A stretch of DNA of 64,000 nucleotides from an uncultured Veillonellaceae bacterium (GTDB lineage Bacteria; Bacillota; Negativicutes; JARBTT01): contig CAWDTA010000003.1 of NCBI GenBank assembly GCA_963805085.1, forward strand, positions 64,001 through 128,000, written 5' to 3'. The notes beneath the pieces are model-generated. The model had not been told where the DNA came from. It worked only from the letters and a program-made list of their open reading frames with translations, and did not search any database. The position numbers were made by a program, and so were the translations under genes. Below are positions 48,727 through 50,620 of this stretch, piece after piece (positions within the stretch are counted from its first letter, which is position 1; each line of letters begins with the position of its first letter).

Positions 48727-48889
48727 AATAAAAATTTCGCAGCATACTTGCGAATTTTGTAGTGAATAGAATGATGAAATAAGGAAAAATCCTATTAACT
48801 TAGATGAATGTAAATTCATAAGGGAATTGGAAGATTATTCTTGTATTTTGTTTTTTTATGAGATATAATGTAATATAATATGTATATGT

Positions 48890-48976
48890 TTTATATATAG
48901 CAAACCTATTGAAAAGTAGGGACGCAAAGCCGTGGGTCTAAAGATGATACGAGTCTATGACTGCCTGGTTGCATCA
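48890..48976 (+). ncRNA. GEMM-I cyclic-dinucleotide riboswitch aptamer, A20 variant
   Basis: AGCAAAC-CTATT-GAAA-AGTAG-GGACGCAAAGC...GGGTCTAA...ATGACTGCCTGGTTGC. Confidence 0.9.
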
Positions 48977-49004
48977 ATTCATGATGTAACTAGGCAGTTT
49001 TTTT
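48960..49004 (+). terminator. Riboswitch expression-platform terminator
   Basis: ACTGCCTGGTTGCATCA / TGATGTAACTAGGCAGT stem plus T-run, overlapping the aptamer 3' strand. Confidence 0.85.
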
Positions 49005-49072
49005 GTTAACCTTTTTACTATGATATTTACAGAGAATATTTGATTTGATCAAAGTTATAGGAAAGGAAAAAC

Positions 49073-49969
49073 ATGAATTTAGAAAAACAAATTGTTCTTA
49101 TTGTTGATGATATATACTTTAATGCTAAATTTATTGAGGATATTTTGAAAGATGATTATCTGGTAGTCATCGTAACATCGGGAAAAGAATGTCTTGATTA
49201 TGTTGAGCATAAAAAAGTCGATATTATTTTATTAGATATTGTTATGCCTGAAATAGATGGATATGAGGTATGTCAAAGGCTAAAAGCAAACTCGGCAACA
49301 AAAAAAATTCCAGTTGTTTTTTTATCGGTAAAGGGAGAAATTGAAGATGAAACAAAGGGCTTGGAGCTTGGGGCAATCGATTATATTATAAAGCCTGCTA
49401 GTATCTCCATTATAAAGGCACGAATTAAAAATCATTTAGCAGTAAAAAAATATAATGATGTCTTGGAGAAACTTTCTTTTGTTGACGAATTAACGGGGCT
49501 ATTTAATCGTCGTTATTTAGATAAGGTATTAAAGAAAGAATGGCAATGTGCTTTGCGTACTGGTGAGATCTTATCGGTTCTTTTAATTGACATTGACTTT
49601 TTTAAAGGCTTCAATGATTGTTATGGCCATTTAAAGGGAGATAAGTGTCTGCAAAAAGTGGCGACTGTTTTAAAAAATTCGGTATTGCGTTCGAGTGATA
49701 TTGTTACAAGGTATGGTGGCGAGGAATTTATTATTATTTTGCCGTCAACATCTCAAAATGGAGCAATAAAAGTAGCAAAAAGATTACAGGAGCAATTAGC
49801 TTTATTAAAGATAATCCACCAAGGGTCAGATATCAGTGAGTATGTTACGGTGAGTATTGGTATGGCTTCTGTTATTTCAAAAGACTTTATCGATGAAAAA
49901 GGGATCCTTGAAATGGCTGATTTCGCATTATATCAAGCCAAAAGGCAAGGGCGAAATAGAATTGTATAA
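49073..49969 (+). CDS. REC-GGDEF diguanylate cyclase
   Basis: IVDD, LLDIVMP, KP; DIDFFK, NDCYGHLKGD, RSSD I-site, GGEEF. Confidence 0.94.
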   Translation: MNLEKQIVLIVDDIYFNAKFIEDILKDDYLVVIVTSGKECLDYVEHKKVDIILLDIVMPEIDGYEVCQRLKANSATKKIPVVFLSVKGEIEDETKGLELGAIDYIIKPASISIIKARIKNHLAVKKYNDVLEKLSFVDELTGLFNRRYLDKVLKKEWQCALRTGEILSVLLIDIDFFKGFNDCYGHLKGDKCLQKVATVLKNSVLRSSDIVTRYGGEEFIIILPSTSQNGAIKVAKRLQEQLALLKIIHQGSDISEYVTVSIGMASVISKDFIDEKGILEMADFALYQAKRQGRNRIV

Positions 49970-50065: not shown

Positions 50066-50129
50066 GCAACCAATAAAAGCTTACTTAAATCCTATTTTAT
50101 ATGGATTTAAGTAAGCTTTTATTGGTTGT
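50066..50129. terminator. Long inverted repeat downstream of the cyclase
   Basis: CAACCAATAAAAGCTTACTTAAATCC...GGATTTAAGTAAGCTTTTATTGGTTG. Confidence 0.65.
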
Positions 50130-50305
50130 AGAAAAATGTGATCTTTTTTAGGTAAAATTCTATGTAGTCATATATTTCACTGATCTATATTGTGTGGTTG
50201 CAAGAAATCAATGATAGGCAGATGAAAAGAAGAACATAAAAAAAAGTTGATGCATAATATAAGTTAGGTAAATTGCAAATGAAAAAGAATATAGGAGGGA
50301 AAAGT

Positions 50306-50620
50306 ATGAGCTTTCTCAACTGCTTTGCCAATAGTATAGGATCCATAACAATACTAACGGATGATGGTTTTATATTTCAAGGACAAATCGTGAAGTTCCG
50401 TGAAGAAGACCGACATAAGGAAGAGGATTTTATTTTATTAGAATTGATTTGTAACGCTTCAAGGGTTACTGAAGATGGAGAAATTAGAAATATACATCCA
50501 GCACTTTATCGGGATAATGATATTATTAGAATTAATATATGCAGTATCATTGCAGTAGGTCCTAGTAACGGTTGCCCGAGCAACCATGACCATCATAAGA
50601 GCGAAATTTGTTCACAGTAA
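50306..50620 (+). CDS. Small hypothetical protein, paralog of 31391-31690
   Basis: AGGAGG RBS; SigK-like AC-N17-CATAATATA at 50234-50261. Confidence 0.75.
   Translation: MSFLNCFANSIGSITILTDDGFIFQGQIVKFREEDRHKEEDFILLELICNASRVTEDGEIRNIHPALYRDNDIIRINICSIIAVGPSNGCPSNHDHHKSEICSQ

Follow-up and report, generated by a model that had tools for sequence, protein, structure and literature searches.

The 64-kb stretch analysed here (the window; contig CAWDTA010000003.1 of an uncultured Veillonellaceae bacterium) carries a c-di-GMP-I (GEMM-I) riboswitch upstream of a gene for a diguanylate cyclase, a cyclic di-GMP (c-di-GMP) synthase that joins a receiver (REC) domain to a GGDEF domain. When the window was scanned with cmscan, the sole Rfam match was RF01051 (48889-48976, + strand), which scored 69.4 bits (gathering score 35, E = 1.6e-11) and covered the full model (1-87 of 87). 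In the alignment all conserved junction bases are present except the one at position 20, in the numbering of the Vc2 riboswitch of Vibrio cholerae, where the consensus G is replaced by A. The other ligand-contacting bases, A47 (model position 38, after CGC) and C92 (model position 83, 48972), are retained under an assumed model-to-Vc2 numbering (model position plus 9) that agrees with the registers of G20 and A47. We take C48972 to be the equivalent of Vc2 C92 and hence the Watson-Crick partner of the second ligand guanine. A20 variants are still classed inside the c-di-GMP-I family. The model for the c-di-GMP-II class (RF01786) reached 33.6 of the required 53.5 bits, at another site of the genome, and so stayed below threshold. 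In metagenomic contigs from four soil and groundwater sets a related strain covers 48824-49730, and base 48899 is unchanged among the matches listed (40 of 89). Both the GEMM-I assignment and the A at position 20, proposed earlier in a sequence-only reading of the locus, are thus borne out by the Rfam alignment and the sequence.

The 3' strand of the aptamer, including C48972, is at the same time the 5' arm of an intrinsic terminator, and formation of the terminator excludes P3 and the C92 equivalent. In a consensus scan 48959-48999 was recognised as a terminator-like stem of 18 pairs, seven being G-C, that closes a loop of 5 and precedes TTTTTGTT; three terminator-like sites were present in the scanned region, compared with 0.6 expected from shuffles. 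The minimum free energy (MFE) fold of the leader includes the terminator hairpin (-46.5 kcal/mol, z = -5.45) and none of 200 shuffles was as stable. For the segment 48889-49006 the MFE with the terminator is -42.4 kcal/mol vs -15.7 kcal/mol for the aptamer secondary structure. With this advantage of about 27 kcal/mol for the terminator fold, the default state would be off. ON switches under kinetic control normally favour the terminator strongly on thermodynamic grounds, and such a bias has been modelled for the pilM switch of Geobacter (PMC9262584). The two folds are mutually exclusive and no separate anti-terminator was seen in the leader; the layout is that of a kinetically controlled ON switch. 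The sequence-only reading had the terminator stem consume the aptamer 3' strand, with read-through on ligand binding, and this layout is confirmed here and is kept in all 12 orthologous leaders described below. Position 20 lies 174 nucleotides (nt) ahead of the ATG. It is possible that a candidate -10 hexamer (Table 1) places the transcript start ~10-25 nt ahead of the aptamer core; the promoter consensus scan gave 10 sites vs 9.3 expected, none of them on the + strand upstream of the aptamer.

The protein encoded downstream has two Pfam domains, Response_reg (PF00072, residues 8-118, 2.4e-25) and GGDEF (PF00990, residues 136-296, 1.5e-51). Among solved structures PleD is its best relative (E = 4.9e-58), and the WspR-type structure 3bre was matched at 1.3e-51. 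In the PleD alignment RSSD stands opposite RAID, GHLKGD opposite GHDIGD, GGEEF opposite GGEEF and, in the phospho-acceptor region, DIILLD opposite DIILLD. The receiver is intact: VDD, DIILLD, FLS and IKP align with the D1 domain of PleD (acidic pocket, phospho-acceptor Asp, Ser/Thr and Lys). The GGEEF signature, the RxxD I-site and the Asp of GHxxGD that had been read from the sequence earlier are therefore all found in the PleD alignment. PleD (Caulobacter) and WspR (Pseudomonas) share with the window protein the REC-GGDEF architecture, GGEEF, the specificity Asp and an RxxD motif five residues upstream; the window cyclase has a single receiver domain, as WspR does, whereas PleD has two. To our knowledge neither PleD nor WspR is under riboswitch control. 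Hypr GGDEF enzymes, which make cyclic GMP-AMP (cGAMP), have a serine (Ser348) at the specificity position, and Asp combined with GGEEF is reported to give diguanylate cyclase activity only (PMC6456294). By its motifs, the window gene is predicted to encode a canonical PleD-like c-di-GMP synthase.

Table 1. Features of the riboswitch-cyclase locus, in window coordinates.
Feature	Position	Strand	Description	Family
Candidate -10 hexamer TATAAT	48864..48869	+	By eye; poor -35 TTGTAT at 48841-48846, 17-nt spacer
c-di-GMP-I (GEMM-I) aptamer	48889..48976	+	P2 hairpin with GAAA loop; P3 hairpin with tetraloop-receptor-like CUAAAG/CUAUGA	RF01051
A at Vc2 position 20	48899..48899	+	Base reading the first ligand base; consensus G (model position 11, before GCAAAC)	
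Intrinsic terminator	48959..49006	+	18-bp hairpin and U7; 5' arm ~48959-48977, 3' arm ~48983-48999	
U in P3, U-U mismatch with U48933	48966..48966	+	Non-standard pair in cmscan; dropped as non-canonical in the fold	
C at model position 83, taken as Vc2 C92 equivalent	48972..48972	+	Within the terminator 5' arm	
Ribosome-binding-site-like GGAAAGGA	49060..49067	+	5 nt before ATG; read from sequence	
REC-GGDEF response-regulator diguanylate cyclase, 298 residues	49073..49969	+	REC ~49094-49426, GGDEF ~49478-49960	
Asp190 of GHLKGD	49640-49642	+	Base-specificity position (PleD D344)	
RSSD I-site, residues 206-209	49688-49699	+	Five residues before GGEEF	
GGEEF active site, residues 215-219	49715-49729	+		
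Perfect 26-bp inverted repeat, 10-nt loop	50067..50128		98 nt past the cyclase stop codon, before a small open reading frame; by eye	

A protein search of 300 other genomes of the same class at E <= 1e-60 returned 27 homologous loci in 23 genomes. An upstream aptamer was found at 11 loci by motif scan and at one more by an Rfam scan of the other 16, so that 12 of the 27 loci carry the riboswitch, four with A20 and eight with G20. The window leader and the 11 relatives from the motif scan were aligned. In this 12-leader alignment 96.2% of the cells at aptamer pairs are paired and eight pairs have changed on both sides; none of 500 shuffles reached this level of pairing, and slid controls gave 26-49%. 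A hairpin followed by a T-run, with its 5' arm beginning in the aptamer, folds in all 12 leaders, and the arm sequences vary between groups yet remain complementary. The distance from position 20 to the cyclase start is 119-218 nt in nine leaders and 448-503 nt in the other three, which have an intervening open reading frame (ORF) of ~100 residues. In an ortholog from another family the aptamer, A20 and the terminator are kept at 77% identity. The riboswitch, the overlapping terminator and the REC-GGDEF gene thus persist as a unit in several families of the class. The three long leaders (L127, L128 and L129, from G200, G096 and G180) belong to one genus; there an ORF of 95-111 residues lies between the riboswitch-terminator and the REC-GGDEF gene, and the arrangement of the genes suggests that the leader may control a two-gene unit.

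The base at position 20 does not follow this conservation. In a maximum-likelihood tree of 26 cyclases (L141 and L142 were left out, having no ORF of at least 200 residues with GG[DE]EF that matches the query) the window cyclase and its 69%-identical ortholog from genome G004, both with A20 switches, form a clade (support 100/99), and the switches of the sister clade are G20. A second clade (100/100), confined to a single genus, contains two A20 and two G20 switches in aptamers that are otherwise nearly identical. The tree needs four changes to account for A20, and with 128 of 500 label shuffles as low, the A20 switches show no clustering; every one of the 26 cyclases has Asp at the specificity position. 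By eye, no column of the 12-leader alignment co-varies with position 20. Across the class the A-type core pattern was matched in 71 of 301 genomes and the G-type pattern in 127 of 301; a few of the A-type matches, which lack the hairpin, are plainly due to chance. In a wider contig scan 80 loci were recovered, mostly from other phyla (best named match Acetobacterium wieringae, 51%), and none has an upstream aptamer. Two pattern matches upstream of these loci were inspected by eye and are not aptamers.

Of the two circuits put forward in the sequence-only reading, a relay from cGAMP to c-di-GMP and a c-di-GMP positive-feedback switch limited by the I-site, the second fits the evidence (ON layout, canonical Asp/GGEEF cyclase and I-site). 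We consider it probable, at roughly 0.7, that a c-di-GMP-induced ON switch governs the PleD-like cyclase, giving positive feedback that is phosphorylation-gated and product-inhibited, with A20 either tolerated or tuning the threshold. The identity of the ligand, the in vivo direction of regulation, the dynamics of the feedback and the tuning of its threshold are inferences in this model. According to this model the aptamer would fold first on the nascent RNA, and c-di-GMP bound at the three-way junction would keep 48959-48976 locked in the aptamer, with A48899 (presumably protonated) contacting one guanine and C48972 the other. The 3' arm (48983-48999) would then be unable to build the 18-bp terminator and the polymerase would read into the gene; without ligand the far more stable terminator would form and transcription would stop at the U7 run. 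The cyclase would make c-di-GMP when its receiver is phosphorylated and would be inhibited by its product at the RSSD I-site. Since c-di-GMP would induce a c-di-GMP synthase, the result would be positive feedback, with a two-component input as its gate and the I-site as its cap. No experimental test of such a riboswitch-to-cyclase feedback loop was found in the literature searched.

The A20 aptamer probably still binds c-di-GMP, more weakly than a G20 aptamer would, by analogy with Vc2, which is the source of the affinity evidence: the G20 form is reported to bind c-di-GMP with a picomolar dissociation constant and cGAMP at 10 uM, and the G20A form to bind them at 53 nM and 120 nM, respectively (PMC6140456). 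Weaker binding may raise the threshold, which would suit an element that fires only at high c-di-GMP. The easy exchange of A and G among the orthologs suggests that the effect of A20 is modest or is tuned lineage by lineage.

The best functional analogue of the window aptamer is Cbe 1-2 of Clostridium beijerinckii, likewise a low-GC Gram-positive GEMM-I aptamer with a natural A20. It has been described as bispecific, with reported affinities of 30 nM for c-di-GMP and 463 nM for cGAMP, and its adenine is protonated when c-di-GMP is bound (PMC6140456). Cbe 1-2 differs from the window RNA in locus and sequence. The GEMM-Ib switches of Geobacter (Gs1761/pgcA, Gmet_0970 and pilM) share with the window both A20 and the ON design with an overlapping terminator; in the pilM switch, as described, the C that pairs with the ligand is taken up by a terminator overlapping the aptamer 3' strand (PMC9262584). 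In the published accounts of Geobacter, cGAMP is made by the Hypr GGDEF enzyme GacA (Ser348) and the switches control cytochromes and pili. In the window genome, unlike Geobacter, no Hypr GGDEF or SMODS protein was found, the controlled gene is a canonical cyclase, and the orthologs swap A and G. Vc2 and Cd1 (Clostridioides difficile) belong to the same RF01051 family and have the P2/P3 architecture and junction bases of the window aptamer, but G20 is present in both; in Cd1, an OFF switch, the terminator is separate, and in Vc2 P1 is longer and the affinity picomolar. Genes for GGDEF, HD-GYP, histidine-kinase and methyl-accepting chemotaxis proteins (MCPs) were already listed downstream of GEMM in the 2007 paper that introduced the motif (Weinberg et al.; PMC1950547, Table 2). 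These are the same gene classes that follow the nine GEMM-I aptamers of the window genome; the 2007 table itself gives neither ON/OFF logic nor the state of position 20 nor orthology.

Several points weigh against positive feedback by c-di-GMP. It is inferred at the level of the circuit, with translation, the phosphorylation state and phosphodiesterases unaccounted for. P1, which the sequence-only reading had called weak, is indeed only ~2 bp by eye (U48898-A48973 and A48897-U48974). The window copy combines a U-U mismatch in P3 with a terminator stronger than that of any other of the 12 leaders, and might respond poorly or only at high ligand. The base at position 20 can matter, as A20G is reported to turn the cGAMP switch Gmet_0970 of Geobacter into a c-di-GMP switch (PMC6456294). 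The assembly (4.21 Mb in five contigs) is 83% complete, and a cGAMP synthase could sit in the missing part. The DncV-like model PF21654 had no match, but its control was positive in no genome, and cGAS/DncV-like nucleotidyltransferases (CD-NTases) outside the SMODS family were not searched.

Some of these points would also fit a decaying or ligand-blind leader, in which the aptamer has ceased to compete; the leader would then attenuate constitutively, or its relief would not depend on a dinucleotide. To the short P1 and the 27 kcal/mol advantage of the terminator fold can be added the U48933-U48966 mismatch, which is unique to the window copy (U-A in the other 11 orthologs; column pair 49-82 of the 12-leader alignment), and the terminator hairpin segment, at -28.5 kcal/mol the strongest of the 12 leaders (range -16.8 to -28.5). 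U48966 pairs with an A of the terminator 3' arm, and the mismatch, compensated in the terminator, may bias the window copy toward termination. Nevertheless, P1 is by eye equally short in all 12 leaders, the G20 ones included, and the Rfam model has no P1; a weak P1 common to the G20 orthologs is therefore a feature of the group and not a sign of decay. The full-length Rfam match with its junction bases, the retention of aptamer, A20 and terminator in another family, and the normality of a strong terminator bias in ON switches of this kind also argue against decay, which we regard as distinctly unlikely. The opposite logic, an OFF switch with negative feedback in which binding favours termination, would give a synthase the more usual homeostatic design of negative autoregulation, and other aptamers in the genome, e.g., the one before the membrane GGDEF gene at C2:1216110, do have a separate, non-overlapping hairpin. 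At the window locus, the aptamer 3' strand, ligand-pairing C included, doubles as the terminator 5' arm, one fold excludes the other, and an alternative anti-terminator was not seen; this makes the OFF arrangement highly improbable.

The other alternatives assign a different or an additional ligand to A20. In the relay, a GEMM-Ib-like A20 sensor of 3',3'-cGAMP would turn on c-di-GMP synthesis. Besides A20 itself and the incomplete assembly, it can draw on the report that the same base sets cGAMP selectivity in Geobacter aptamers (PMC6456294), on the match between the ON layout and that of the cGAMP switch of pilM (PMC9262584), and on candidate cGAMP phosphodiesterases that are reportedly common in Firmicutes (bioRxiv 10.1101/600031). 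The genome search that the sequence-only reading had called for turned up other A20 aptamers (3 of the 9 GEMM-I aptamers are A20), but neither Hypr GGDEFs nor SMODS CD-NTases. All 20 GGDEF domains in the assembly carry Asp (0 of 20 Hypr), as do all 17 (0 of 17 Hypr) in G004, which is 97% complete and is the closest relative with an orthologous A20 switch. The SMODS model matched nothing in the window genome, with control genomes positive, and nothing in four other A20-bearing genomes, G004 among them. In the HD-GYP (HD_5) domains we assumed that the Rxx motif follows DxxDAxTS: none of the nine domains has the cGAMP-type Rxx(Q/N), seven have RxY(K/R) and two have no motif. Replacement of Rxx(K/R) by Rxx(Q/N) is the published mark of cGAMP-specific HD-GYP enzymes (bioRxiv 10.1101/600031). 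No known cGAMP source or cGAMP-type HD-GYP domain was thus found, the orthologous switches alternate between A and G within one genus, and a clostridial A20 aptamer with measured affinities, Cbe 1-2, is reported to prefer c-di-GMP 15-fold (PMC6140456). Beyond the single base A20 nothing positive favours the relay, which is not supported by these results and which we consider very unlikely. In this lineage A20 does not appear to be a mark of cGAMP signalling, and the A/G swaps speak against its use as a cGAMP marker outside Geobacter-like lineages.

A milder proposal is that the A20 aptamer answers both c-di-GMP and cGAMP (or another G-containing dinucleotide) and so integrates two signals, the second from a source beyond the reach of the searches, such as a prophage, a defence island or a CD-NTase outside the SMODS family. 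Widespread bispecificity of A20 variants in vitro has been described (PMC6140456), the class-wide counts of A-type and G-type cores indicate that many lineages retain A20, and the CD-NTase search rested on one working Pfam model. In vitro binding is no proof of a second ligand in vivo, however; neither a synthase nor a specific phosphodiesterase was found, and the A/G flips among close orthologs imply that loss of cGAMP binding (A to G) costs little. We judge a bispecific sensor to be unlikely. The more particular idea that the class keeps A20 aptamers for their ability to sense, in addition, 3',3'-cGAMP or a different G-containing dinucleotide whose source the models miss, e.g., a divergent CD-NTase of a defence island, seems to us quite unlikely; if it were true, a phage-defence or stress signal would directly switch on c-di-GMP synthesis and with it a sessile programme.

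The nine GEMM-I aptamers found genome-wide comprise three with A20 and six with G20. The A20 aptamers precede the window cyclase, an MCP gene and, in one case, no clear downstream ORF; the G20 aptamers precede three MCP genes, an M23 peptidase gene, a histidine kinase gene, the gene for a membrane GGDEF protein and a sugar epimerase operon. As the gene classes overlap (MCPs and GGDEFs), the A20 and G20 sets are not separable by function. The overlapping-terminator layout was seen in four of the nine, three of which are G20. The G20 aptamer at G000:C2:1216110-1216205 (- strand; L005/L015) lies before the gene for the 400-residue membrane GGDEF protein (PF00990, 1.7e-43), and its leader hairpin, AGCUCUGCC-AUAA-GGCAGAGUU, stands apart from the aptamer, with a poor U-tract. 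From this arrangement the leader could be an OFF switch, in which case c-di-GMP would control one cyclase of the genome positively and another negatively. The A20 aptamer without a clear target (G000:C5:476574-476658, - strand; L003/L013; 75.7 bits) has as its first same-strand ORF one of 58 residues, 432 nt away, beyond which the next genes are on the opposite strand; judging from this context, the aptamer is possibly an orphan, the switch of a small protein or an RNA that acts alone. The A20 core before the gene for a 4HB-MCP (C4:350763-350793) is present twice in identical form in G001 (C53:7255-7285 and C237:12563-12593). Since G001 is the only other genome of the genus, this A20 is conserved too.

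Downstream of the cyclase gene, the inverted repeat at 50067-50128 is probably a terminator that closes the transcription unit. The related-strain contigs have single-base indels at the edges of its loop (50092 and 50102). The small ORF that follows (50273-50620, + strand; 115 residues) has no Pfam match and a Cys/His-rich tail, and its start is probably the internal MSFLNCF. A protein with 53% identity is encoded in the same place after the cyclase in G004 and is absent from the other orthologous loci; as it is common to G004 alone, it falls outside the conserved unit.

Taken singly, the window locus is an ordinary case, as clostridial A20 variants of GEMM-I and the link between GEMM and GGDEF genes are both already in the literature. 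As a conserved unit, the riboswitch and its cyclase would be a hard-wired c-di-GMP positive-feedback element and a simple system for bistable commitment to high c-di-GMP. The natural A/G swaps in near-identical orthologous aptamers, e.g., the A20 leader of G200 (L127) and the G20 leader of G096 (L128), provide matched pairs for the effects of A20 on threshold and selectivity.

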